Shown here piece after piece: positions 33,122-63,054 of a DNA stretch of 64,000 bases. Both the position numbers and the translations under genes were made by a program. The notes under the pieces are model-generated. The model made no database searches, was not told the DNA's origin, and was given only the letters and a program-made list of their open reading frames with translations. This DNA is from Thermoproteota archaeon (GTDB lineage: Archaea > Thermoproteota > Thermoprotei > Thermofilales > B9-G17), in NCBI GenBank assembly GCA_029258885.1, contig JAPDJW010000009.1, forward strand, positions 32,001-96,000, in the 5' to 3' direction. Position 1 is the stretch's first letter. Each line of letters opens with the position of its first letter.

Positions 33122-34552
33122 TTACTTTTTCCTAATTAATATTGCAGCCAATATAACAGCCACGGATACTATTATAACGGCAGCGTTTTCCATTATTAAA
33201 GTCTTCAGAAGCTCTATCTTATTAACGAGGTAAGCCTCGCCGCCTATTACTGGGGGTAGCGGGAACACTATCTTTATGTCCTTAATAGAGCTATGGAATA
33301 CCTTAATATAGAGTATTTTCTCGTATTTATCGTAGTACCATACGTTGCTCGTAGCTGTTAGGTATTTATCCTTCGATAAGGTATACGGTATTAATACGCC
33401 GTCTACTTCAACCGTGTAGGGCCGGTCGTTTGACGTGATTTTGGTTTCGGATGCTGTGCCAGCTGGTGCATCAATTGATATTATGAAAACTCCCTTATCT
33501 GCATCGTAGGATGCCTGAACTATCGTGCCATTAGTTATTGTCGTATATGGGGAGTCAAACGGCCTAAATGCATAGTTTGCTATAGTTATCTCATCCTCCA
33601 CATCATCCGCTGAGGAGATGGAGGTCTCATACACCTTGCCGATGTCCGGACTAACTACCTCGATAACATACGATTCTCCAGGCACTAGTGGAAGGATTCC
33701 TACCCCCTTCATGTCGGTTGTCGCCGAGAACCCGTTAGCTAGTAGCTGATGCCCATATAATCTCTTCCCCAGCGCATCCTTAAGGGTTACATTATACTTC
33801 GCTATATCAATTCTAAGGTAGGTTGTTATATTATCGTGATCGCTCCATTCATTGGCTTGATCGTGTACATTATCGTTATAGGGTATGCTTGAGACAGCGC
33901 TACCATCCCCGCCAGTAATATATACTACCAAGTTGATTTCACTGGGTACACCCCCTAGAGCAGACCACGGCACCTTAACTTTAAATAGGGTTGAGCCACT
34001 GTGATCAGAGGCAACAGGGGTATAGCCTCCACCCACGCTTACAAGATCATTGTAGTACCATACGTACCAGTGGTGTACGTCGGGGTCTCTAACAATGGGC
34101 GGATAGCTCTCCCACATATACCTATTAAACTGGGCGGTTGTTATTGTAGAGCCGTCGTACCAGAAGTATGATATATAGTCTGGATAGTAGGGCGACGTAT
34201 GGTTGAAGAATCTGCCCCAGCAATCCCTCCACGTGGAGTCGTCGGGCTCATATACTGCTCCAAACCCTATATTTGGATCCTTATTAATGTCAAAGGCTAT
34301 TCCTAAAGCTAATCCCCAGCCGTCCGGGGCAAAGTCGACACCTATATATAGGAAGCTTGAATCCCAAGTCACATATAGGAGCGATAGATTAGCTGGCTTA
34401 CCTGGAGCATCTTGATCAACTTGAGCCACTTTCTCATCCGACGAGAAATCGTTTGAATTAGTACTCATATCTATCGTATGCGGCGGCTTCGCAAGAACCG
34501 AACCGAAAGCTACGATAGTTAATAGTAAAAATACTAGCAGTATTCTTTCCAT
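33122..34552 (-). CDS. Secreted, C-terminally anchored protein with DOMON/glucodextranase-like N-terminal domain
   Basis: Signal peptide; LYVTWD..FLYIGV, GI..D, KVPWSALG pattern; C-terminal PPVIGG...TM-RKK. Confidence 0.6.
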   Translation of the reverse strand: MERILLVFLLLTIVAFGSVLAKPPHTIDMSTNSNDFSSDEKVAQVDQDAPGKPANLSLLYVTWDSSFLYIGVDFAPDGWGLALGIAFDINKDPNIGFGAVYEPDDSTWRDCWGRFFNHTSPYYPDYISYFWYDGSTITTAQFNRYMWESYPPIVRDPDVHHWYVWYYNDLVSVGGGYTPVASDHSGSTLFKVKVPWSALGGVPSEINLVVYITGGDGSAVSSIPYNDNVHDQANEWSDHDNITTYLRIDIAKYNVTLKDALGKRLYGHQLLANGFSATTDMKGVGILPLVPGESYVIEVVSPDIGKVYETSISSADDVEDEITIANYAFRPFDSPYTTITNGTIVQASYDADKGVFIISIDAPAGTASETKITSNDRPYTVEVDGVLIPYTLSKDKYLTATSNVWYYDKYEKILYIKVFHSSIKDIKIVFPLPPVIGGEAYLVNKIELLKTLIMENAAVIIVSVAVILAAILIRKK

Positions 34553-34662: not shown

Positions 34663-35637
34663 TCATCTATTCAGCATACCCGTTATTAGATATGCAAAAA
34701 TAAACACTGCTAAGAACAGTAGGAATGTTAGAACTAGAGTACTAGAACTTGCAGCCCCCGACTCCACGGGCAGGGCAATACATACCTCCGCATCAGATAC
34801 AACATACATTCTTCTCTCGTCGTATTTTACGCCGTCTTTCTCTATCCTAACTCTATATTCACCGGGATTAAGTTTAAGATTTACCCTACCCTCGGAATCC
34901 GTATGTAGGAGGTAGCTCTCCCCCTCCCCCTCAATCCTCACGGTTATGCCGCTAATAGGACTGCCCGATAGGCTTACGATCTTAATAGTAACGTTTAACC
35001 TCTTTAGGCCGTGGAGTGAGGTATATAGCTCCCTCACATAGTTCATAAACTTTATCCAGTTGAATGTTGATCCCGGATCTGTATGATGGCTTCTACCTCC
35101 CCCTACCCTGGGGTTGCTTGGATCGGGCACTTGAATATGCCCTATAATGCCGGAGGATTGGAGAGGACTTGGGGGAGCAACGCCCTCAACCCATACTAAT
35201 GCAACATTATAGTTTTCGTGAAGCCATACGGCAAGCTTAGCAAGGTTTTTATAGAGTGTGTCAGGCCAAATAGTGCTCCCAACATAGCCGGCAATCTCTA
35301 TGCCTACCGAATACCTATTATAGAGGGAGTTTCCAGCATGCCATGCAATATCCTTAATTCTAACCATCTGTGTGAGATGTGTACCAGCTTCATTTATAAC
35401 AAAGTGTGCACTAACTCTAGCTTTAGGATTCTTAAACCAATTAATAGTACCCCCGTAGCTTCCCTCAGCAACATGTATTATAAACCATCTAACATCTTCT
35501 CTGCCTCTATTACTGCTTAAATAGTTGCCTGGATCTGCTGGATTCCATATAGCTCCGGGGTAGTCCGGCTGAGAATATACTTTCACTGCCACAATCACCA
35601 TTAATAATATAATTAATAATGATAGTATTCCACGCAT
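34663..35637 (-). CDS. Membrane-anchored N-acetylmuramoyl-L-alanine amidase (Amidase_2/AmpD family)
   Basis: IIHVAEG, VSAHF, AWHAG, N..SVGIE, IIGH.QV, HTDPG (Zn ligands H/H/D and catalytic E); then a beta-sandwich and a C-terminal TM; N-terminal signal peptide. Confidence 0.9.
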   Translation of the reverse strand: MRGILSLLIILLMVIVAVKVYSQPDYPGAIWNPADPGNYLSSNRGREDVRWFIIHVAEGSYGGTINWFKNPKARVSAHFVINEAGTHLTQMVRIKDIAWHAGNSLYNRYSVGIEIAGYVGSTIWPDTLYKNLAKLAVWLHENYNVALVWVEGVAPPSPLQSSGIIGHIQVPDPSNPRVGGGRSHHTDPGSTFNWIKFMNYVRELYTSLHGLKRLNVTIKIVSLSGSPISGITVRIEGEGESYLLHTDSEGRVNLKLNPGEYRVRIEKDGVKYDERRMYVVSDAEVCIALPVESGAASSSTLVLTFLLFLAVFIFAYLITGMLNR

Positions 35638-35688
35638 AGAGGCCCGAGGAAAAATAGGTATTAACAGTTATTTAAATATGCTTCCGAG

Positions 35689-35737
35689 TCAGTGTTCGGA
35701 ACTTCGTTCATCGATCCCTCGAAACCTCCCTCATCAT
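35689..35737 (-). ncRNA. Candidate C/D box guide sRNA
   Basis: Minus strand reads ATGATGA (C) GGGAGGTTTCGA GGGA (D') TC GATGA (C') ACGAAGTTCCGAACA CTGA (D): 49 nt, intergenic, typical archaeal size and spacing. Confidence 0.65.
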
Positions 35738-35770
35738 CCAAGTATTTACTCCATAAACGGAGATATATTG

Positions 35771-37096
35771 TTACCTTCTAGTTTTTATCGCAAGCCCCAA
35801 TCCTAGAATAGCTAGTGTAATTGCCCAGACTAATGTTTCGTGGAATACTAACACTATAGTTAGGGCGCATAGAAGTACTCCTATGAGCGACGTTACGGGA
35901 ATATTTAGGGGGGCTAGCGGTATCTTAAATGGTCTCTCAGCATCCGGATATCTTCGCCTCAGAATAAGCACCGAGAAGTTCACAAAAATAAATGCTATTA
36001 GACAGCCCAAATTGGAGGACTTAGCGACAACATCTATAACCTTTATGGGATCCTCATAAAACCCTGATACTACCACCTCAAAGAGAGCCACGAACCCTGC
36101 CAATATAACTGAATAGTGCGGAGTTTTTCTTCGAGGATGCACTAAGGAGAGCTTGGGGTTTAGCATGCCATCGTACGACATTCCATACGCTATCCTAGAG
36201 GATGATACAAGGAAGCCCAGGATGGTGTTTGAGGTCGAAAATAGGGCAATAGACGCTAAAAGGTACCAGCCCATAGAGCCTAAAACCGATTTAACAGCTG
36301 AAGCAAGTGGTGCGCCAGCAATAGCTAGTTCCTTCCAATCCATCAGCTTAACTACAGATAAGGCAACCAATAGGTATAGTAGTCCGCATACAGTTAATGC
36401 AAGAATAATTGCCTTAGGCATTGTTCTTCTGGCATCAATTGTTTCTTCACTAGTCGTAGCCATAAGCTCAAAGCCGACATACGCAAAGAATATTAAGGCA
36501 GCTCCTTGAAGTATTCCAATCCAGCCTTTAGGAGGCATTGATACGTAGTCAGGGTTAACCCTGCCAAAAAGCGCTCCAAGAATTATTACAATTATTAGTC
36601 CGCTTACTTCCACTAGCGTGAATGCTATATTTAATTTACTGCTCTCCTCTATCCCAAGATAGTTTACATAGGTAAATATTAGTATGGCTACCGCCGATGC
36701 AAGTATTAACGTAATGTTTCTATTAAATATATTCAGCTGAAATATCTCTATAAAATACCTGGAGAATCCAACAGCTGCTGTCGCAGCACCACTAGCTGCC
36801 TCGAAAAATATCATCCATCCTACAAGAAAGGCCAGCATTTCCTGCTTATCAAATGCTCTTTTAACGTAAAAATAGCTACTTGAAGCCTTGGGATATAGAC
36901 CTGAAAGCTCTGCGTAGCTTAATCCAGTAAATAAAGCTATTAAACCAGCTACAACAACTGAGAGCCAAATTAATGGCCCGGCGTATGCTGCGGTTCGACC
37001 TATAACGACATATATCCCAGCTCCCAGTATTAATCCAATTCCAAACATTGTTGCCTGCCATAATCCTAGAGCACGCTTTAGCTCACTCATAGTCAC
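35771..37096 (-). CDS. APC family amino-acid permease
   Basis: G.GLILGAGIY, SYAELS..YP, FFAYVGFE, SRIAYGMS.DG.L, RRRYPD.ERPFK; about 12 TM. Confidence 0.93.
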   Translation of the reverse strand: MTMSELKRALGLWQATMFGIGLILGAGIYVVIGRTAAYAGPLIWLSVVVAGLIALFTGLSYAELSGLYPKASSSYFYVKRAFDKQEMLAFLVGWMIFFEAASGAATAAVGFSRYFIEIFQLNIFNRNITLILASAVAILIFTYVNYLGIEESSKLNIAFTLVEVSGLIIVIILGALFGRVNPDYVSMPPKGWIGILQGAALIFFAYVGFELMATTSEETIDARRTMPKAIILALTVCGLLYLLVALSVVKLMDWKELAIAGAPLASAVKSVLGSMGWYLLASIALFSTSNTILGFLVSSSRIAYGMSYDGMLNPKLSLVHPRRKTPHYSVILAGFVALFEVVVSGFYEDPIKVIDVVAKSSNLGCLIAFIFVNFSVLILRRRYPDAERPFKIPLAPLNIPVTSLIGVLLCALTIVLVFHETLVWAITLAILGLGLAIKTRR

Positions 37097-37117
37097 ACCA
37101 GCATCTGCTATTAAGCC

Positions 37118-39127
37118 TTACCTTATTAATAACTTTTTAACAACTATTAACGCTGCAGCCACAGCTACAATGATAAGCACTAGTATGAGCTCGATCGGCA
37201 TCTCTTCCCTCTTTTCTTCCACGTGTACTACTAATATAGCGTATGTAGGCTTCCAGTACGGATTTCCCTCAAAGGCTACTTTAACGTAATAGTTTCCCGT
37301 TTCATAGGGCTTCCATAGATGTGTGAATTCGCCGCTACTATTTGTCGATATTTCACACATAAAGCTCCACTCTGAGGTATATTCGGGTCTAAAGTATATC
37401 TTCAAGTTTACGCTTATTCTCGGCTCCACGTAGCCCGATATTTTTACCCACTCTCCAAACACCGCTGAAATATTATATGAAGCAAGGTTTATCTTGAGGC
37501 TTGATTTAGGCTGAACCTCTATAGTTAAAGTATGCTCTGATGGAGCGTAGCTCTTCGATCCGTTGTAGCGAGCTTTAATGCAGTATTTTCCCTCGGTTTG
37601 AGGCCTCCATACGTATTTAAATTCCCCCTTATCATCCGCTAATACGCTGCTTATCTTAATCCAGCTTCCATCGGTCGAGTAGTAGAGGTCTATTTGAGCG
37701 CCAGCTATCGGTGGATTTATTTTACCGCTTATTTCAACGTAGCTACCTACTACGGGTGATGTATTATTTACCTTTAGCGTAAGGTAGGTTTTAGTCTGTA
37801 TTAAGGTTACTCTTATCGTTACTAGCTCATAATCTCCAAGGTAGGCTTCGCTCCCGTTCCACTGGAATAACACTAGATAAACCCCACCCTTAGTTGGGAG
37901 GAACTCGTAAATGAAACCTCCCGTATTATCAGTAGTAACCGTTTTATCCAGTATCCACGTTGCTCCGTTATCGAGGCTATACATGACGTATATTTTAGCT
38001 TTAGGTATCCCCGGCTCAAGCCTACCTTTAATTTCATACCTCTCATATCCCTTACAGGACTTAGGGTACGTTTCGATAACTATATCCGATAGATTTTTCC
38101 TATTTACCTCGTCGAGCGCGTTCCAGAAGCTAGAGTCCTCTATGCCAACATACCATACGGCGACGTATTTAAGCCCGAATTTTTTAATTAGTTTAAGCCT
38201 ATCAAGGTGGCTTGCAGGTCCCGAAAACCATACCTCATGGCGTTTTCTGCCTGCTGTATAGGAGTAGTGGTATTCCCCCTCCTTGTAATCGTATAGGACT
38301 TTAACTCTTAAAGCCTTAGCTCTAGATATTGCGGAGCCATACGTGACTGCCTTCCCTGTTCCGCCGACTGGCCAGTCTATACCGTAGGCGGGAATCCCTA
38401 TAATAAGCTTGTTGCTGGGCACCTTGGTTAATGCATACTCTATTATGTCCTGAATCCACCATATTGGAGCTACAGGACCTGGGGAACCCCCCGGATAGTG
38501 GTAATCGTACGCCATTATCACTACATAATCCACGACTTCAGCTATTTTTTCATAGTCGTATCCAGTAACCACGTCTCTGGTTTTAGGGAATACATCCACG
38601 CTAACTTCCTTATCTCCAATCTGCTTTAGCCTAAGCTTAAGCCTCTTTAGAAAGCTTACAAAGGCCTGTCTATCGCTACTATATACTCTTTCAAAGTCTA
38701 TATTTACCCCGTCGAAGCCGTAGTCTTCCACTACTTTAGCTATTTCCTCAACCACGTCCCTACTAGTCTGATTATTAAGTATAAGCTTAATCAGGGATGA
38801 GCTATGGCATATAACTGTGGGAACAACCTTAATTCCCTTATCCTGAGCGAAGGAGACGAAGTTCTTAAATGTGTCTCCAATAGACTTTATCGGGACAACG
38901 CTTCCATCGTCATCCACCTTAAACCAGAACGGTGATACGTGCGAGAAATACTTATACTTAGAATACAGCTTACTTGTATCAAAGTTCCACCAGGCAAACC
39001 ATCCAAATAGCTTTATCTCATCTGAAGCATTTCCCTGAGCATCTACGGGTAAAGTAGGCGTTAAGGCTACCGATATCATTAAGAGCCCTATACATAACAC
39101 GTTAATTCTAGCATTCAAAGCCATCAC
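37118..39127 (-). CDS. Membrane-anchored GH18 hydrolase (YaaH/SleL/YdhD-like) with Ig-like repeats
   Basis: FDGVNIDFE, IMAYDYH, GPVAPIWW, GIPAYG, HEVWF, AVWYVGIED; three Ig-like repeats; signal peptide and C-terminal TM. Confidence 0.9.
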   Translation of the reverse strand: MMALNARINVLCIGLLMISVALTPTLPVDAQGNASDEIKLFGWFAWWNFDTSKLYSKYKYFSHVSPFWFKVDDDGSVVPIKSIGDTFKNFVSFAQDKGIKVVPTVICHSSSLIKLILNNQTSRDVVEEIAKVVEDYGFDGVNIDFERVYSSDRQAFVSFLKRLKLRLKQIGDKEVSVDVFPKTRDVVTGYDYEKIAEVVDYVVIMAYDYHYPGGSPGPVAPIWWIQDIIEYALTKVPSNKLIIGIPAYGIDWPVGGTGKAVTYGSAISRAKALRVKVLYDYKEGEYHYSYTAGRKRHEVWFSGPASHLDRLKLIKKFGLKYVAVWYVGIEDSSFWNALDEVNRKNLSDIVIETYPKSCKGYERYEIKGRLEPGIPKAKIYVMYSLDNGATWILDKTVTTDNTGGFIYEFLPTKGGVYLVLFQWNGSEAYLGDYELVTIRVTLIQTKTYLTLKVNNTSPVVGSYVEISGKINPPIAGAQIDLYYSTDGSWIKISSVLADDKGEFKYVWRPQTEGKYCIKARYNGSKSYAPSEHTLTIEVQPKSSLKINLASYNISAVFGEWVKISGYVEPRISVNLKIYFRPEYTSEWSFMCEISTNSSGEFTHLWKPYETGNYYVKVAFEGNPYWKPTYAILVVHVEEKREEMPIELILVLIIVAVAAALIVVKKLLIR

Positions 39128-41668: not shown

Positions 41669-42667
41669 TTAGTCTATCTCTTCCTCGACAGCTATTTTAG
41701 TTAGGGATGTGCTTATAATCCTGCCATATTCCTCGACTAGAACCATTATTGCGGCTCTAGGCGGTATTATCCCTTTCTCGGTAATTATTGCATCAATATA
41801 CTCCGGTGGAGTAACGTCGAATGCCGGATTTCTTACAATAATATCACTATTTTTCTTAATGTATTCCTCAGGGACAACCTCTAGCGGGCTCCTCTCCTCA
41901 ATTACTACAAGTTCACCTAGAACGGTTGCTGGACTAAACTTATAAGTTTCGCTGGCGACAAAAAACCTAACCCTGGCCTCCTGTGCGGCAAGGGCTATCT
42001 GTGACGTACCTATTTTATTAACAACAGCTCCGTTGGCTGCAATGGTATCGGCACCTACAATAACCTTATCAATCTTCTTTATGAAGAACCTAACGGCCGA
42101 ATCCGTTATTAGAGTGACATCTATACCTAAATCCCTCAAAGTCCTGTAAGTTATAAGTCCCTGAAACTTAGGCCTAGTCTCGGTTGCGAAAACCCTAATC
42201 TCCTTCCCTGATAGGAAGGCGTGCCTTATAACGGATATTGCCGTCGAGCTATTACAGTGAGTTAAAATAGTATCACCACTTGAAATAAGCCTTGAACCTA
42301 TTCTACCAATCTCCTCAACAGCCTTCTTCGATATCTCAATAAAGCTCTTAGCCGAGTTGATAGCTATACTCCTAAGCTCACTAAAACCCATACCCTCCTC
42401 AAACCCCTGAGACACCCTTATTAGCACGTATCCAACAGCGTTCGGAAGAGAGACTGCCGTAGGCCTAGTAGACTTAAGGTAATCTCCAACCAAATTCAGG
42501 TAATCAACAAAGCTTTCAGGATCTCTAGATAAATCGTACTTCTCAGCAGCTATCTTCAAAGCCTTAGCCGCCGCTCTAGCTATCCTACCGGCCCCCCTAA
42601 TTTTCATAGATTTAATGCCTTCAGCTATCTTAACAACCTCGGGAGGAAAATACTGTGGCGCTACCAT
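41669..42667 (-). CDS. Ribose-1,5-bisphosphate isomerase (eIF2B-like)
   Basis: MKIRGA, TRPTAVSLPNA, LTHCNS (catalytic Cys), ETRP..QG, TDSA (Asp), GADTI..NG...NKIGT, NPAFDVTP. Confidence 0.88.
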   Translation of the reverse strand: MVAPQYFPPEVVKIAEGIKSMKIRGAGRIARAAAKALKIAAEKYDLSRDPESFVDYLNLVGDYLKSTRPTAVSLPNAVGYVLIRVSQGFEEGMGFSELRSIAINSAKSFIEISKKAVEEIGRIGSRLISSGDTILTHCNSSTAISVIRHAFLSGKEIRVFATETRPKFQGLITYRTLRDLGIDVTLITDSAVRFFIKKIDKVIVGADTIAANGAVVNKIGTSQIALAAQEARVRFFVASETYKFSPATVLGELVVIEERSPLEVVPEEYIKKNSDIIVRNPAFDVTPPEYIDAIITEKGIIPPRAAIMVLVEEYGRIISTSLTKIAVEEEID

Positions 42668-43656
42668 AGCTTCACCTCAATCTCCTTCAAAAGATCATCG
42701 AGCTCCGGGAACTTCGGCGGCCAGCCATATATGTCTCTAAGTAGGAATATTACCGCCTCAGGCGCTACAAGTCCTTTCTCGGTAATTATTGCGTCAATGT
42801 ACTCGGGAGGAGTAACATCAAATATTGGTAGAATGGACTTCACATCGCCGAGCTCCTTGATGGCCTCACCAATAAACTTTTCGGACGGCCTCTTAATAGT
42901 CAACTCGACGAGCTCTCCGAAGATGGTTTCCGGGCTGAACTTATGGGTTGAGGATGCTATAAACACTCTAACCCTAGCCTCGTGTGCAGCCAGCGCTATC
43001 ATCGACGTACCAACCTTATTTATAACGGCACCGTTCGCGGCTATCGCTTCTGCGCCAGTAATAACCTTATCCACATCCTTCATAAAATACCGGACTGCGG
43101 AATCAACAAAAATAGTGACAGGAATTCCTAGCTCCCTCAGCTTTTTAGCCGTATAGAACCCCTCGGATCCAGGCCTAGATTCAACCACGTAGACCTTAAA
43201 CTTAACTCCTCTATCCCATGCCTCCTTAAAGAGCCTATAAACGGTACCGCTATATGAAATAGTTAAAATGGTCTCTCCGGGATTAATCCTCCTAGAGCCT
43301 ATGATAGCAACAGCTTCAACAGCCTCCCTTAACTCCTGTTTAAGCGCCTCAGCCTCCCTCTTCACGGAATCCTTAATCTTTTCAAAATCCCTAGTCTCAT
43401 CCAGAGCTATATTCAGCCTATGTAGAAGCCTCCTAAGAGAGTTGGCCATCATAACCGACGTAGGCCTAGCGGAATAGAGCTTCTCTACGGCAGTGGAACA
43501 GTATTTAAACGCTGTATTAATATCGCTTGAGTATTCGAAGGCCTTAACGAATACTTCTATTCCAGTAGTTACTACATCGGTTGAACTATATATGTTAAAT
43601 AGAGAGATATCTTCAACCGCCTTATCTAAAACATCGTAATAGTTAGAACTAGACAT
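42661..43656 (-). CDS. Degenerate eIF2B/R15P-isomerase paralog
   Basis: SARPTSV, TISYS in place of THCNS, ESRP..EG, VDSA, GAEAI..NG...NKVGT, FDVTPPEYID. Confidence 0.8.
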   Translation of the reverse strand: MSSSNYYDVLDKAVEDISLFNIYSSTDVVTTGIEVFVKAFEYSSDINTAFKYCSTAVEKLYSARPTSVMMANSLRRLLHRLNIALDETRDFEKIKDSVKREAEALKQELREAVEAVAIIGSRRINPGETILTISYSGTVYRLFKEAWDRGVKFKVYVVESRPGSEGFYTAKKLRELGIPVTIFVDSAVRYFMKDVDKVITGAEAIAANGAVINKVGTSMIALAAHEARVRVFIASSTHKFSPETIFGELVELTIKRPSEKFIGEAIKELGDVKSILPIFDVTPPEYIDAIITEKGLVAPEAVIFLLRDIYGWPPKFPELDDLLKEIEVKLW

Positions 43657-58605: not shown

Positions 58606-61600
58606 TTGAAAAAGTCTATTTTTATAATAGCCTTACTTATACTTACAATTGCCTTGAGGTTCGGTTTAGCCGATCCATCAGCTTCAGTCAGCATAGATGA
58701 CATCGTCGATTATGTTGAGAAGATAAATGGCTTTAAGCCTAGATTCACGGGATACGAGGGCTGTAGGGAGGCGGCTAGATATATCTTTAATGAGTTTTCA
58801 AAATACCTAGACAACGTTACCTGGGAGACCTACCCTATATTAATACCGTACGATGCTGGTTCCACATTGATTGTTAAAGTCGGCGGTGAGGAGTATTCCT
58901 TTAAGGTATATCCATTTCTACCCAATGATGTACAGACATGCTACGGAGAATATGAGGGAAAATTAGTCTACGTAGGGGATGCAAGCTATACTAGCCTGAA
59001 CGGTAAGGAACTTAATGGAAGCATAGCTGTAGTTGAATTAGACTGCTATATTAGCTGGGTTAGGCTGATAGACTTCGGAGTAAAGGCTGTAGTATTCATA
59101 CCTAAATATGATGTGAATAGGCTTCAAATGGAGGGTAAATACCTAGATATACCCGTAAAGTTTCCAAGAGCGTTATTATCGCTTAATGATAGAGAAAGGA
59201 TAATACGCTTACTTAGGGAGAATATGGAACTGGAAGCCAAGCTTAAAATAGGTATGAAGTGGGAGGTTAAGAGTTGTGACGTAATATACGGCTACATAAA
59301 TGGAGCAAGTAAACCCGATGAAGTGGTGGTGCTACTTTCCCATTTCGATTCCTACTCGTGGGCTCCATCTCTTCCCACGGGAGCTTCTGATGCAATAGGT
59401 ATATCGATACTAATGGAGCTTGCAAGAGTATTCTCTGTAAATAGGCCTGAAAGAAGCATACTATTCGTAGCTGTATCGGGACATTACCAGGGACTTTATG
59501 GCACGAGGATGTTTATTGAGAGACATATTTTAAATGAAAGCGATAGGCTCAATCTTCTAGCTTCAAATAAGAAGATCTTCGTAATCGATCTAAAAGTATT
59601 TGACGATGATTCCAGGGTATCCTTCCTATATGTCTCGTACTTCTATGATGCATCAACAGGAGGAATATCTGTTAGTGCTAGACAGAGGTACGTTGAAGTA
59701 GCTAAAGGTATAGACAAAGTACTAGACTATCTGAGCTCAAACATGCCTGAAGGCTTAGATGAGGAGTACATAAGTCACGAATATGAAATGCTGAGTATAA
59801 GTCAGGGAACAAACGATTGGCAGAGGTTATTTCCACGCCCAATACACATCGATGCTGAAGCATTCTTCAGGGTGGGATTAGCTAGCGTATGCTTTCATAC
59901 CGCATACAGCTTCAGAAAATATCTTGGAACGGAGCTTGATACACCGGAGAGGATAAACTGGGAAAACGTCCTGAAACAAGCGGTATTTATTGAAAGCGTG
60001 GTAAATACTATAGTAAACGATGTTAAATATGGTTTTTTTGAAAATTTAGTTTCAGGATTAGCTACAACTGGACCTAAGAGATCGGGCAGCTATGGTGAGT
60101 CATTTGGGGATTTTGTAGGCAAAATTGTCACATGGGATCCGGATAAGGCAAACTGGGTTCCATTGTCGGAAGCTGGGCTAAAACCAGCTATTGTCTCAAT
60201 TAGATTAGGCGGAGCTACCTTCTCCGGATCCCAGTGGAACGTAAGATTCTACCTATTAACTGATAAAGACGGAGTCTTCACGTTAAATGGTTCGCTCATA
60301 GGCTGGGGAGCCAGCTATGAGGTTAGAGCATACATAATGGATGAAAACTATAACATTATCTATGTTTCAGACTTCGGTAGGCATGGAGGTGAAGTCTGGT
60401 CCAACACTTTTCTCCTAAACGCTCCAATAGTGGGAAGCAAGGATAATCCAAGACTTTTTGTAGTATTCAAGGCATCCGGCATAGTACTGCCTAAAATACT
60501 GGATCCTCTAGTGGTATCCGAACCTCTCTCACAGTCAAACAACCTGTATCCGGATGGAGCATACGAGAACAGCTTTAGTATTGAAGTTCTAGAAGAGGAT
60601 ACGGGCGTACCCCCGGACGCTTACTCCTGGTATATGGATCCGAAGGGTATTGGAGTAGTATTTCTTCAACCCAACTCAAAGGCTCTCGTGGTAATGAGAA
60701 CTAAGGGAAGAGAATACCCGATAGGTTTCATAATAGTTAACTCAGGAGATGCTGGAACAGAAGCTATCTATACGAGATTTCTTGAGAGGATATCCTTAAG
60801 CGTTATGAAGCTAGCCTTAGAGAGGAGAAATAGGCTGAAGAGCTTTGGTGTAACAAACTATATGCTTGAAAAATTCATATCCATGGCTAGTGAAAAGGAG
60901 GCTAAACTCCAAGCCTTAATTGAAGATAAACGCTATGATGAATACTTTGTTGAGTCGGTCGATTTACTGGGGTTAGCATACAATTCATATGCCTTCTCCA
61001 GAGGCCTTTACATGGACGTGATACTCTCAACAGTATTGCTCTTCATACTAATACTTGTCTTCTCAATACTGCTCGAAAAGACTTTAACTGGAGATAAGAG
61101 TGCTAAAATAAGAGCGTTTTCGCTCATATCGATATTTACCGTAACTCTAGTAACCTTATCAATACTTCATCCGGGCTTCACTTTAGCAGCAAATATTATA
61201 ATGGTTGAAATAGGCTTCGTAATGCTACTATTCATAGGCTTAATACTATTCATACTATTCCTGGAGTTCACAGTCTTTCTCCAAACATATAGGAGGGAGA
61301 GGCTCGGCGTCCACTTCATGGAATCCAGAGGAATAGAGGTCGGAGTTCTAGCGATGTCCACGGGAACGGAGTACATGAAGAGGAGGAAAATTAGAACCCT
61401 ATTAACGCTAATATCGATAACAGTAATAGCGTTCGCTCTAGTCACCTTCACATCCGGACAGACGATGATCGTAATCACGCCTAAAGTTTTCGAGCCTGAA
61501 CTTAAGAAGACGCTATACAACGGCATACTCTTGGAGAGAATAGCTACCGTTAACAATCCTCTATCGATAGAGCTATACGAATACCTAAAAATCAAGCTTA

Positions 61601-63054
61601 AGAACATAGGATTAGCCACAATAAAAATATGGTCACTTCAGCCTAGGGGGGCGGCAGGCCAGCAGTTCATAATTCATGCAGTGGATCCGGCTACACTCAG
61701 GAAGATGGATATAAGGGGAATATATGGGCTTATGCCTGAAGAATACGAGTTAGTAGCTAAAAACATAACTCTCATAGAAGGCAAATGGTTTGACGAAACA
61801 GATGTATTTGTCTGTATTATACCCGAAAGCCTACACGAGCTGTTTGAACTGAACGTCGGAGACGAAATACTGATACAGGGGCTTAAGCTTAGGATTATAG
61901 GAATATTTAGCGATACATTGCTGGCGAACTTAAGGGAGATAGATAACCGCGAATTAACGCCAATAATAGGTAGCCAGGGAGGCCTTCCGATACATTCGCG
62001 TCCATCATACACGATTATAGTCCCGGTTAAGCTTGTGATCTATCAGCCATGGCTCACGCAGGGAGTAGGCGTAGACTTCCAGGTAGCGCAGATAACTGCT
62101 AGAGTTGAGGCAGATAAGGAGAGGCTAATGGATATAGCCGAGGAGATAGCGTTAACTCATCCAGGCTTCGATATATTCATAGGCTACGGCGACAAGATAT
62201 ACCACTTGAGTAAAAGAGCGGCGCTCCAGGTGGCTGGACTAGAGTATATGATCATACCCATCATAATTTCGGTATTAAATATTGTAACAATGGTTCTGGC
62301 AGCTGTCTACGAGAGAATGCGTGAAATATTTGTCTACTCTGCCTTAGGCCTAGCCCCGGTACATGTCGGACTAATGTTTCTAGCAGAGTTTTCAGTATAT
62401 GCCATATTTGGATCATTAGTCGGATACACTATAGCGGTAGCTTTCCTCAGAGCGTTTTCCGGCATGGTTGGAATATATCCGAACTATATATCAGCCTACG
62501 TAATGATGACGATAGGAATATCGGTACTGTCGGTACTCGTTGCAACGCTGTATCCAATGTTTAAGATAACTAGGATAGCATTACCTTCGTTAAAGAGGAG
62601 GTGGGAACTGCCCACAAAGCCCGCGGGTGATATCTGGAATATACCATTGCCATTTTTCGCATCCTCAAGAGAGGAGGCTATAGGGGTTCTATGGTATTTA
62701 GCTGAATTTGCTGCAATGCATAGAAGTGAGGAGTTCGGAAAATTTGTAGCAACAAATATCTCCGGAGCAATATCTGAAGATGAGATGGAGCTCAAATTTA
62801 GGGCAAGAATAGCTCCGTGGAGAGCAGGCATAGAGCAGGATGTAGCAATTAAGGCAATGTATTTCAAGGAGAGGAATAACTGGACGTTTAATCTCGTACT
62901 AAAGAGGATAAGTGGAGACTATAGGACATGGAGATCGGCCAACTACGTATTCGTGGATACTGTTAGGAAGCAGTTCCTGCTCTGGAGAAGCCAACCGCCT
63001 GAGAAAAAGAAGGAGTACTTCGAGAAGGGGCTTAAACGTTTTAGCGGAGGATGA
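58606..63054 (+). CDS. M28-like/PA extracellular domain fused to an FtsX-type permease
   Basis: RFTGYEG, PA-like insert, SHFDS, GASD..GISILMELAR, SGHYQGLYG; TM block; RRKIRTLLTL (FtsX), ERMREI..YSALGLAP.HV..MFLAE. Confidence 0.85.
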   Translation: MKKSIFIIALLILTIALRFGLADPSASVSIDDIVDYVEKINGFKPRFTGYEGCREAARYIFNEFSKYLDNVTWETYPILIPYDAGSTLIVKVGGEEYSFKVYPFLPNDVQTCYGEYEGKLVYVGDASYTSLNGKELNGSIAVVELDCYISWVRLIDFGVKAVVFIPKYDVNRLQMEGKYLDIPVKFPRALLSLNDRERIIRLLRENMELEAKLKIGMKWEVKSCDVIYGYINGASKPDEVVVLLSHFDSYSWAPSLPTGASDAIGISILMELARVFSVNRPERSILFVAVSGHYQGLYGTRMFIERHILNESDRLNLLASNKKIFVIDLKVFDDDSRVSFLYVSYFYDASTGGISVSARQRYVEVAKGIDKVLDYLSSNMPEGLDEEYISHEYEMLSISQGTNDWQRLFPRPIHIDAEAFFRVGLASVCFHTAYSFRKYLGTELDTPERINWENVLKQAVFIESVVNTIVNDVKYGFFENLVSGLATTGPKRSGSYGESFGDFVGKIVTWDPDKANWVPLSEAGLKPAIVSIRLGGATFSGSQWNVRFYLLTDKDGVFTLNGSLIGWGASYEVRAYIMDENYNIIYVSDFGRHGGEVWSNTFLLNAPIVGSKDNPRLFVVFKASGIVLPKILDPLVVSEPLSQSNNLYPDGAYENSFSIEVLEEDTGVPPDAYSWYMDPKGIGVVFLQPNSKALVVMRTKGREYPIGFIIVNSGDAGTEAIYTRFLERISLSVMKLALERRNRLKSFGVTNYMLEKFISMASEKEAKLQALIEDKRYDEYFVESVDLLGLAYNSYAFSRGLYMDVILSTVLLFILILVFSILLEKTLTGDKSAKIRAFSLISIFTVTLVTLSILHPGFTLAANIIMVEIGFVMLLFIGLILFILFLEFTVFLQTYRRERLGVHFMESRGIEVGVLAMSTGTEYMKRRKIRTLLTLISITVIAFALVTFTSGQTMIVITPKVFEPELKKTLYNGILLERIATVNNPLSIELYEYLKIKLKNIGLATIKIWSLQPRGAAGQQFIIHAVDPATLRKMDIRGIYGLMPEEYELVAKNITLIEGKWFDETDVFVCIIPESLHELFELNVGDEILIQGLKLRIIGIFSDTLLANLREIDNRELTPIIGSQGGLPIHSRPSYTIIVPVKLVIYQPWLTQGVGVDFQVAQITARVEADKERLMDIAEEIALTHPGFDIFIGYGDKIYHLSKRAALQVAGLEYMIIPIIISVLNIVTMVLAAVYERMREIFVYSALGLAPVHVGLMFLAEFSVYAIFGSLVGYTIAVAFLRAFSGMVGIYPNYISAYVMMTIGISVLSVLVATLYPMFKITRIALPSLKRRWELPTKPAGDIWNIPLPFFASSREEAIGVLWYLAEFAAMHRSEEFGKFVATNISGAISEDEMELKFRARIAPWRAGIEQDVAIKAMYFKERNNWTFNLVLKRISGDYRTWRSANYVFVDTVRKQFLLWRSQPPEKKKEYFEKGLKRFSGG

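Follow-up and report, generated by a model that had tools for sequence, protein, structure and literature searches.

Sediments contain much carbon and nitrogen in the form of peptidoglycan (murein), which is rather resistant to decay and whose degradation is generally attributed to bacteria. The enzymes AnmK, MurQ and NamZ act on N-acetylmuramic acid (MurNAc) or on anhydro-MurNAc (anhMurNAc), which are sugars of bacterial murein. One route by which these sugars are used is encoded in the Bacillus subtilis operon murQ-murR-murP-amiE-nagZ-namZ, where the characterized substrate of NamZ is MurNAc-β-1,4-N-acetylglucosamine (MurNAc-β-1,4-GlcNAc), and the report of that enzyme names bacterial phyla only (PMC8054146). 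In Staphylococcus aureus, Atl releases peptides and MurNAc-GlcNAc (PMC6262408). From archaea, a GH25 lysozyme with antibacterial activity has been described in Aciduliprofundum boonei (PMC4241558), and GH23 enzymes, for which a predatory use was proposed, occur in metagenome-assembled genomes (MAGs) of Woesearchaeota (PMC9723730). A full-text search, with incomplete coverage, returned no paper on AnmK, MurQ or NamZ in archaea, on archaeal murein catabolism or on anchored amidase/GH18 pairs. Here we describe such a pair, termed Amidase_A and GH18_A, encoded on either side of an APC-superfamily permease gene in a 64,000-nucleotide stretch of DNA from a Thermoproteota archaeon (hereafter the window; positions 32001-96000 of contig C5 of genome G000).

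An earlier, sequence-only reading of the window had taken the three genes for a cell-surface module that digests bacterial walls and imports the products. Of that proposal the two enzymes and a probable murein substrate stand, while the three-gene unit and the role given to the permease do not. Murein as the substrate is supported by a second GH18/Amidase_2 pair beside AnmK, by a further locus for NagZ, a NagK-like kinase, MurQ, NamZ and LysA, and by phylogenetic profiles, and GH18_A and Amidase_A probably belong to the extracellular part of a pathway, spread over the genome, for the consumption of bacterial peptidoglycan.

Two Predicted Surface Hydrolases and Their Host

Genome G000 comprises 2.10 Mb in 26 contigs, with a completeness of 99.9% and a contamination of 0.6%, and closed genomes of 1.6-2.3 Mb exist among its relatives of the same class. 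DNA of the species occurs in hydrothermal-vent and marine-sediment metagenomes, in which 12 runs from 10 studies, one of which may be the source of the assembly, contain 40% or more of the words sampled. Among RNA datasets, none was listed as holding the 6-kb stretch of the locus, nor the amidase gene alone. Since a family search of this nearly complete genome found no Mur ligase, no penicillin-binding protein (PBP) transpeptidase and no SLT lytic transglycosylase, the organism is predicted to make neither murein nor pseudomurein, which agrees with the host assumed in the sequence-only reading.

The three genes are co-oriented open reading frames (ORFs) on the minus strand (Table 1) and belong, as had been proposed, to the GH18, APC permease and Amidase_2 families, with scores of 106.5 bits against Pfam Glyco_hydro_18 (cut-off 29.6), 183 bits against AA_permease_2 (PF13520) and 80.5 bits against Amidase_2 (PF01510, cut-off 26), the last protein being recovered also by a whole-genome family scan. 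The motifs DGVNIDFE and W..G.ED recognized earlier in GH18_A are both present, together with MAYDYH, and the catalytic D-x-E is intact within D139-G-V-N142-I-D144-F-E146. The solved structures nearest to GH18_A are those of B. subtilis YdhD (E 2.2e-44), YaaH (E 1.7e-38) and the cortical-lytic SleL (E 1.7e-33), whereas named chitinases reach E 1e-12 or weaker in the same structure-database comparison. The second Asp of the chitinase signature DxxDxDxE is Asn in GH18_A and Thr or His in YdhD/YaaH. Pfam finds no LysM, SH3 or PG_binding domain in GH18_A, which has Ig-like repeats and a transmembrane anchor instead.

In Amidase_A, residues H167, D187 and E114 align with H154, D164 and E116 of AmpD when a profile of 13 homologs is compared with that enzyme, and H55, the counterpart of AmpD H34, is nearly invariant among the 13 and was placed by this conservation, not by alignment to the Protein Data Bank (PDB) structure. 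The H/H/D zinc ligands and catalytic Glu that had been read from the sequence are therefore intact. Hydrophobic N-termini and C-terminal transmembrane segments are visible in both enzymes, in keeping with the signal peptides and membrane anchors claimed for them, and the predicted mode of anchoring is a signal sequence, a β-sandwich stalk and a C-terminal transmembrane segment that replaces LysM, SH3 or choline-binding modules. These features support GH18_A and Amidase_A as intact, putatively surface-exposed hydrolases of the murein type in a host that is predicted to have no murein of its own.

Putative Murein-Catabolic Loci and Their Distribution

Two loci on contig C1, designated B and C (Table 1), are related to these enzymes. 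In locus B, an N-terminally anchored GH18 protein of 351 residues is encoded head-to-head with an Amidase_2 protein of the PGRP/T7 type, followed by an AP_endonuc_2 protein and AnmK, with an OPT-like transporter and an M28-FtsX fusion alongside. The amidase (480 residues) is 21% identical to Amidase_A and has a signal sequence, stalk and transmembrane segment, while AnmK scores 486 bits (cut-off 387) and lies above two NCBIfam equivalog cut-offs. Locus C encodes an anchored C39-like peptidase with an OPT-like transporter and an M28-FtsX fusion, and a putatively cytoplasmic set that consists of LysA (456 bits, cut-off 298, equivalog), NagZ (209.1 bits, cut-off 207), a NagK-like kinase of the BadF type, MurQ (336.6 bits, cut-off 302, with three models above cut-off), NamZ (NamZ_N 253 bits, NamZ_C 193 bits) and a β-lactamase-fold protein with PBP4B as its best match. 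All four of MurQ, AnmK, NagZ and NamZ are thus present in G000. A third YaaH-like GH18 (366 residues, N-anchored) is encoded elsewhere on the contig (G000:C1:417475-421183; L143 8461-12184), beside an EamA transporter and a polytopic M28 peptidase.

Signal sequences are found on the three GH18 proteins, the two amidases and the C39-like peptidase, and are absent from NagZ, NamZ, MurQ, AnmK, LysA, the NagK-like kinase and the PBP4B-like protein. Given this division between hydrolases and catabolic enzymes, the predicted pathway has an outer and an inner arm. Chimerism of the MAG, faulty binning and recent horizontal gene transfer were considered as sources of artefact and are not indicated, since the tetranucleotide compositions of contigs C1 and C5 agree (r = 0.99) and the window locus, locus B and locus C all have a composition that is typical of G000 and inside the range of random segments.

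The distribution of these genes was surveyed in 61 genomes of the class and 301 genomes of the phylum. YaaH-like GH18 and Amidase_2 occur in the relatives almost only in holders of NamZ and MurQ. Nine class genomes hold a strong YaaH-like GH18, and NamZ is present in all nine and MurQ in eight of them. An intact gene of the Amidase_A type is found in three class genomes (G000, G008 and G033), each with GH18, NamZ and MurQ. Within the class as a whole MurQ occurs in 17 genomes and NamZ in 18, among them the closed chromosome G058, and in many holders the two genes are an adjacent pair. Across the phylum, Amidase_2 was found in 13 genomes (~4%) and NamZ in 32 (~11%), with NamZ in 10 of the 13 Amidase_2 holders versus 22 of the 288 others (Fisher's exact test, 1e-8, a value that overstates significance as related genomes are not independent, though the holders span at least six families). 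In a genome of another family (G010, L166), PBP4B-like, AnmK, NagK-like, MurQ, NamZ and LysA genes lie within 11.5 kb.

Bacterial origin of the hydrolases, which the sequence-only reading had suggested examining by trees, was addressed by quick, unrooted ones. Four archaeal sequences form a clade with Amidase_A, supported by a Shimodaira-Hasegawa-like approximate likelihood ratio test (SH-aLRT) value of 90, and the sister sequences of this clade are bacterial and metagenomic. The short archaeal GH18s form one clade (SH-aLRT 93). GH18_A is a long branch within a polytomy, and no donor or direction of transfer can be identified from these trees, for which bacterial sampling was limited by the search method. 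The only full-length relative of GH18_A found was a 98% identical form from the same species, and all others are at or below 40% identity.

A Proposed Route for the Consumption of Bacterial Walls

The genes that are present, their families, catalytic residues and predicted topology, and their joint distribution lead us to infer the following route, every step and activity of which is conditional. The tethered Amidase_A, a zinc amidase of the AmpD/PGRP fold, would remove the stem peptides from MurNAc, and GH18_A, as an endo-β-N-acetylglucosaminidase (ENGase), would cut the GlcNAc-β-1,4-MurNAc bonds to give MurNAc-GlcNAc units, presumably by a substrate-assisted mechanism that requires GlcNAc in subsite -1. 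Import of the fragments would follow, with the OPT-like transporters beside loci B and C as possible carriers. In the cytoplasm, NamZ would split MurNAc-GlcNAc and NagZ would remove terminal GlcNAc, after which AnmK would phosphorylate anhMurNAc, the NagK-like kinase would act on MurNAc and GlcNAc, and the resulting MurNAc-6-P would be converted to GlcNAc-6-P by MurQ. LysA would turn meso-diaminopimelate into lysine. The presence of AnmK in a genome that has no SLT suggests that anhydro-muropeptides shed by growing bacteria may also be used.

The frequencies of NamZ (~11%) and Amidase_2 (~4%) in the phylum suggest that bacterial cell wall may sustain some of the heterotrophy of archaea in hot sediments. 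Of the proposed route, the parts open to direct test are the two anchored enzymes, which are thermostable candidates for muralytic assays.

Alternative Explanations

Several observations weigh against murein consumption as the function of the pair. The position of Lys162 in AmpD, which is K128 in T7 lysozyme, is occupied by His185 in Amidase_A (HHTDPG). This position is also variable in PGRPs, and a His there does not exclude activity. Canonical NagA, NagB, LdcA and the Ala and Asp/Glu racemases were not found in G000 (TIGR00221, PF01182, PF02016, PF01177, PF01168) and a PIG-L deacetylase is present, so that GlcNAc-6-P may go into glycan synthesis by the cell itself instead of glycolysis, and D-amino acids may stay unused. 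The GH18-permease-amidase trio is not conserved, and is a species-specific juxtaposition rather than a module. One group of homologs has its GH18 domain fused to GT2 and polysaccharide deacetylase, the PgdA-type machinery of poly-GlcNAc, which suggests other GlcNAc polymers as possible substrates of the subfamily. Because GH18_A itself is a divergent singleton on a long branch, it may have a different specificity from the shorter archaeal GH18s, on which the co-occurrence signal rests.

These last two points favor a reading in which GH18_A is a chitinase, chitodextrinase or ENGase that acts on chitin, poly-GlcNAc or the chitobiose core of N-glycans and lies near the amidase by chance, with the amidase alone, if anything, directed at murein. 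GH18 is mainly a family of chitinases and ENGases, GH18_A has weak matches to GH85, the EndoS TIM barrel, Endo H and ChiD, and both NagZ and the PIG-L deacetylase could serve chitin catabolism. Such a substrate is unlikely, although it deserves to be taken seriously, because YdhD, YaaH and SleL are by far the best solved relatives and GH18_A shares with their subfamily the replaced second Asp. In addition, its nearest bacterial homologs bear peptidoglycan-binding modules (LysM, SH3_3, PG_binding_1 or SLH domains are frequent, and one homolog carries Amidase_3), its paralog in locus B is head-to-head with an Amidase_2 gene beside AnmK, and the YaaH-like GH18s of the class are confined to NamZ holders.

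If murein is the substrate, the wall that is attacked might belong to living cells. It is conceivable, and in our view improbable, that the membrane-tethered amidase/GH18 pairs open the walls of bacteria that the archaeon touches, a contact-dependent bacteriolysis followed by consumption through AnmK, NamZ and MurQ, and it is similarly doubtful that the surface pair is used for attack, in a life as predator or necrotroph, and not for the passive scavenging of debris. That the pair is mainly a weapon for antagonism or predation, with nutrition secondary, seems less probable still. Both proteins are predicted to be held at the cell surface, and antibacterial or predatory roles have been given to the archaeal GH25 of Aciduliprofundum (PMC4241558) and GH23 of Woesearchaeota (PMC9723730), but an amidase and a glucosaminidase on short stalks would have to cross the outer membrane of diderm prey, and the flanks of the window locus show no genes for pore formation or delivery. 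The complete cytoplasmic catabolic route fits scavenging better, particularly as it includes AnmK, which acts on anhMurNAc, a product of turnover in growing bacteria.

The proposal that GH18_A, the permease and Amidase_A work as a single dedicated module for digestion and import, with the permease as the carrier of the freed (D-)amino acids, has likewise only a slight chance of being correct. Its attraction lies in the co-orientation of the genes, in the 21 nt between the GH18_A stop and the permease start and in the fact that the arrangement is kept in three metagenome contigs. The trio order was seen in these contigs only, however, and their amidases are ~98% identical, which makes them the same species and no independent support. 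GH18_A and the permease are a probable operon, but the trio is not one, and at most these two genes are joined because Amidase_A and the downstream gene p476 have promoter-like elements of their own. The 133-nt spacer between permease and amidase holds an element that resembles a C/D-box small RNA (sRNA) and, upstream of the amidase start, the TATA-like box TTTAAATA, and the spacer between the amidase and p476 has its own A/T-rich box and GGTGA.

The co-conservation of the cluster that the sequence-only reading had put up for a synteny survey was not found, since orthologs occur in other contexts. The closest orthologs of the permease come from MAGs labeled 'uncultured Thermoproteales archaeon', which together with the missing Mur ligases and PBP transpeptidases marks the host as archaeal. 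Within 6 kb of the permease orthologs at 63-66% identity there is no hydrolase, and the trio is missing from the contexts surveyed (L126, L127, G006, G013 and others). The amidase contexts also lack it (L110, L115, G008 and G033). In the metagenome contig L115 the amidase is flanked by a GHL10 glycosidase-like gene on one side and a sulfatase on the other, and the same GHL10/sulfatase context in the sister genus (G001) holds a 42-residue remnant of the Amidase_A ortholog (L140 7940-8065, contig C56). The neighbors of the L110 copy are oxidoreductase and BNR genes, and those of the G008 copy are unrelated genes. Earlier reports of isolated archaeal wall hydrolases, to which the sequence-only reading had alluded, do exist in the GH25 and GH23 enzymes cited above, but the novelty that it suggested for the cluster as a conserved unit lapses with the trio being species-specific.

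As for the permease itself, it is an APC superfamily member and most likely a general amino-acid importer, with the closest models below their cut-offs (TIGR00909, 283 versus 556.8; BcaP, 247.6 versus 690). Its family is common in the order irrespective of wall-degrading genes, with which it shows no co-occurrence link. It is present in 24 of the 61 class genomes, including all eight genomes of a genus (g5) that has no GH18, Amidase_2, NamZ or MurQ, and was not found in G001, G008 or G033. A YaaH-like GH18 and the permease coincide in G000 only. The transporters that flank the cytoplasmic murein genes are OPT-like and not APC permeases, and no racemase or LD-carboxypeptidase (LdcA) was found in G000. 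Amino-acid import by the permease as a dedicated part of wall use is therefore no longer maintained. The permease may import L-amino acids that are set free at the cell surface, but there is no specific link between it and wall use, and as the trio is a species-specific juxtaposition, annotation of the permease as an importer of muropeptides or D-amino acids is not warranted.

Finally, it is extremely improbable that the two proteins serve to remodel a murein-like or pseudomurein wall of the archaeon's own, or that they are prophage lysins. Amidase_2 and GH18 cortex-lytic enzymes are autolysins or endolysins in bacteria and phages, and XlyA and T7 lysozyme are among the PDB matches of Amidase_A. 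The absence of any detected Mur ligase or PBP transpeptidase from the nearly complete genome argues against autolysins, however, no phage genes were seen in the flanks of the locus, the locus has native composition, and a signal sequence with stalk and transmembrane anchor is the architecture of a resident surface protein.

Neighboring Genes

The co-oriented neighbor p476 was considered as a further part of wall harvesting and rejected. The structure model of its N-terminal 234 residues has a predicted local distance difference test (pLDDT) score of 90, and Foldseek matches it to the CBM74 of Ruminococcus bromii Sas6, which is starch-binding (probability 1.0, query TM-score (TMq) 0.59-0.69), with glucodextranase and CBM9 modules next. 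Metagenomic homologs of the domain are parts of large surface proteins or C-terminal portions of GH57 enzymes, and the paralogy of p476 to a locus B gene is confined to the C-terminal stalk. The protein is probably an anchored α-glucan-binding surface protein that lies outside the murein function.

Eight large M28-FtsX fusions (~1470 residues) are encoded in G000, four on C1 and one each on C2, C3, C4 and C5. The C5 copy lies at ~58669-63018 of the window, with its OPT-like partner just past the window end. Seven of the eight fusions adjoin one of the eight OPT-like polytopic transporter genes of the genome, and two such pairs flank the murein loci. The M28-FtsX/OPT-like pairs are a candidate uptake system for oligopeptides or muropeptides. 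The window also holds two tandem, overlapping IF-2B-family paralogs (332 and 331 residues; 41669-43656), with a VapB-like antitoxin and a HEPN/nucleotidyltransferase pair nearby.

Table 1. Features of the window and of two related loci on contig C1. Positions are those of the window unless a contig is given.
Feature	Position	Strand	Basis
p476, 476 aa, with signal sequence, CBM74-like domain, β-sandwich region and C-terminal transmembrane segment	33122..34552	-	ORF; structure model
p476 CBM74-like domain, residues 22-255	33788-34489	-	predicted structure and Foldseek
Amidase_A, 324 aa	34663..35637	-	ORF; Pfam; alignment to AmpD
Amidase_A C-terminal transmembrane segment, residues 297-320	34678-34749	-	hydrophobic segment
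Amidase_A CarboxypepD_reg β-sandwich, residues 216-277	34807-34992	-	Pfam
Amidase_A Amidase_2 domain, residues 47-189, with H55, E114, H167, D187	35071-35499	-	Pfam
Amidase_A signal sequence, residues 1-22		-	hydrophobic N-terminus
C/D-box-sRNA-like element (ATGATGA ... GATGA ... CTGA), directly upstream of the TTTAAATA box	35689..35737	-	read by eye from the sequence
APC-superfamily amino-acid permease, 441 aa	35771..37096	-	ORF; Pfam AA_permease_2
GH18_A, 669 aa	37118..39127	-	ORF; Pfam; motif reading
GH18_A C-terminal transmembrane segment, residues 644-664	37136-37198	-	hydrophobic segment
GH18_A three Ig-like/CarboxypepD_reg-like repeats, ~residues 355-640	37208-38065	-	stalk, β-sandwich
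GH18_A GH18 domain, residues 44-327	38147-38998	-	Pfam
GH18_A catalytic D139/N142/D144/E146	38690-38713	-	motif DGVNIDFE, residues 139-146
GH18_A signal sequence, residues 1-31	39035-39127	-	hydrophobic N-terminus
Locus B (L142 and flank): GH18, Amidase_2, AP_endonuc_2, AnmK, OPT-like transporter, M28-FtsX	G000:C1 184000-201500 (~184-201 kb)
Locus C (L163): LysA, NagZ, NagK-like kinase, MurQ, NamZ, PBP4B-like and neighbors	G000:C1 209000-225100 (~209-225 kb)

Comparison With Known Systems

The closest match in mechanism is Atl of S. aureus, in which a surface amidase and glucosaminidase give stem peptides and MurNAc-GlcNAc that are taken up and split inside (PMC6262408). Atl is a single polyprotein that acts on the cell's own wall, whereas G000 has two separate transmembrane-anchored proteins that would act on a foreign wall, and the intracellular cleavage that is carried out by MupG in S. 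aureus is proposed to be carried out by NamZ in G000. The glucosaminidase of Atl is a GH73 enzyme, not a GH18.

The inner arm has its counterpart in the MurNAc operon of B. subtilis (PMC8054146). G000 has MurQ, NagZ, NamZ and an adjacent β-lactamase-fold protein, and the logic is alike in that GlcNAc, peptide and MurNAc are removed and MurNAc-6-P is then converted to GlcNAc-6-P. The NagZ, AmiE and NamZ of B. subtilis are secreted and MurNAc enters by a phosphotransferase system (PTS), while the G000 counterparts have no signal sequences, a NagK-like kinase and AnmK stand in place of the PTS, and there would be no own murein to recycle. The families of the two window enzymes, Amidase_2 and GH18, are not among the members of that operon.

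With respect to the individual enzymes, the best relatives of GH18_A are the Bacillus spore proteins YdhD, YaaH and SleL (PDB 3cz8, 4s3k and 4s3j; E 2e-44 to 2e-33), with which it shares the D-x-E and the replaced second Asp at an identity of ~30-40%. In place of their LysM domains it has three Ig-like repeats and a C-terminal transmembrane segment, and its host is a non-sporulating archaeon. Amidase_A belongs to the fold family of the AmpD/AmiD/PGRP zinc amidases (PDB 1j3g, 2bh7 and 4bj4), with which its H/H/D ligands and catalytic Glu align. AmpD is cytoplasmic and specific for anhydro-muropeptides, whereas Amidase_A is predicted to be exported and anchored, has His in place of Lys162 and has an additional CarboxypepD_reg stalk.

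The GH25 of Aciduliprofundum and the GH23 of Woesearchaeota are likewise bacterial wall hydrolase genes in archaea that have been read as acting on bacteria. They differ in being single genes of other families, with an antibacterial or predatory interpretation, that were reported without a MurNAc catabolic pathway. Each protein described here belongs to a known family, and what sets the system apart is its murein-less host, its archaeal anchoring architecture and the use of a YaaH-type GH18 instead of GH73 or GH25.

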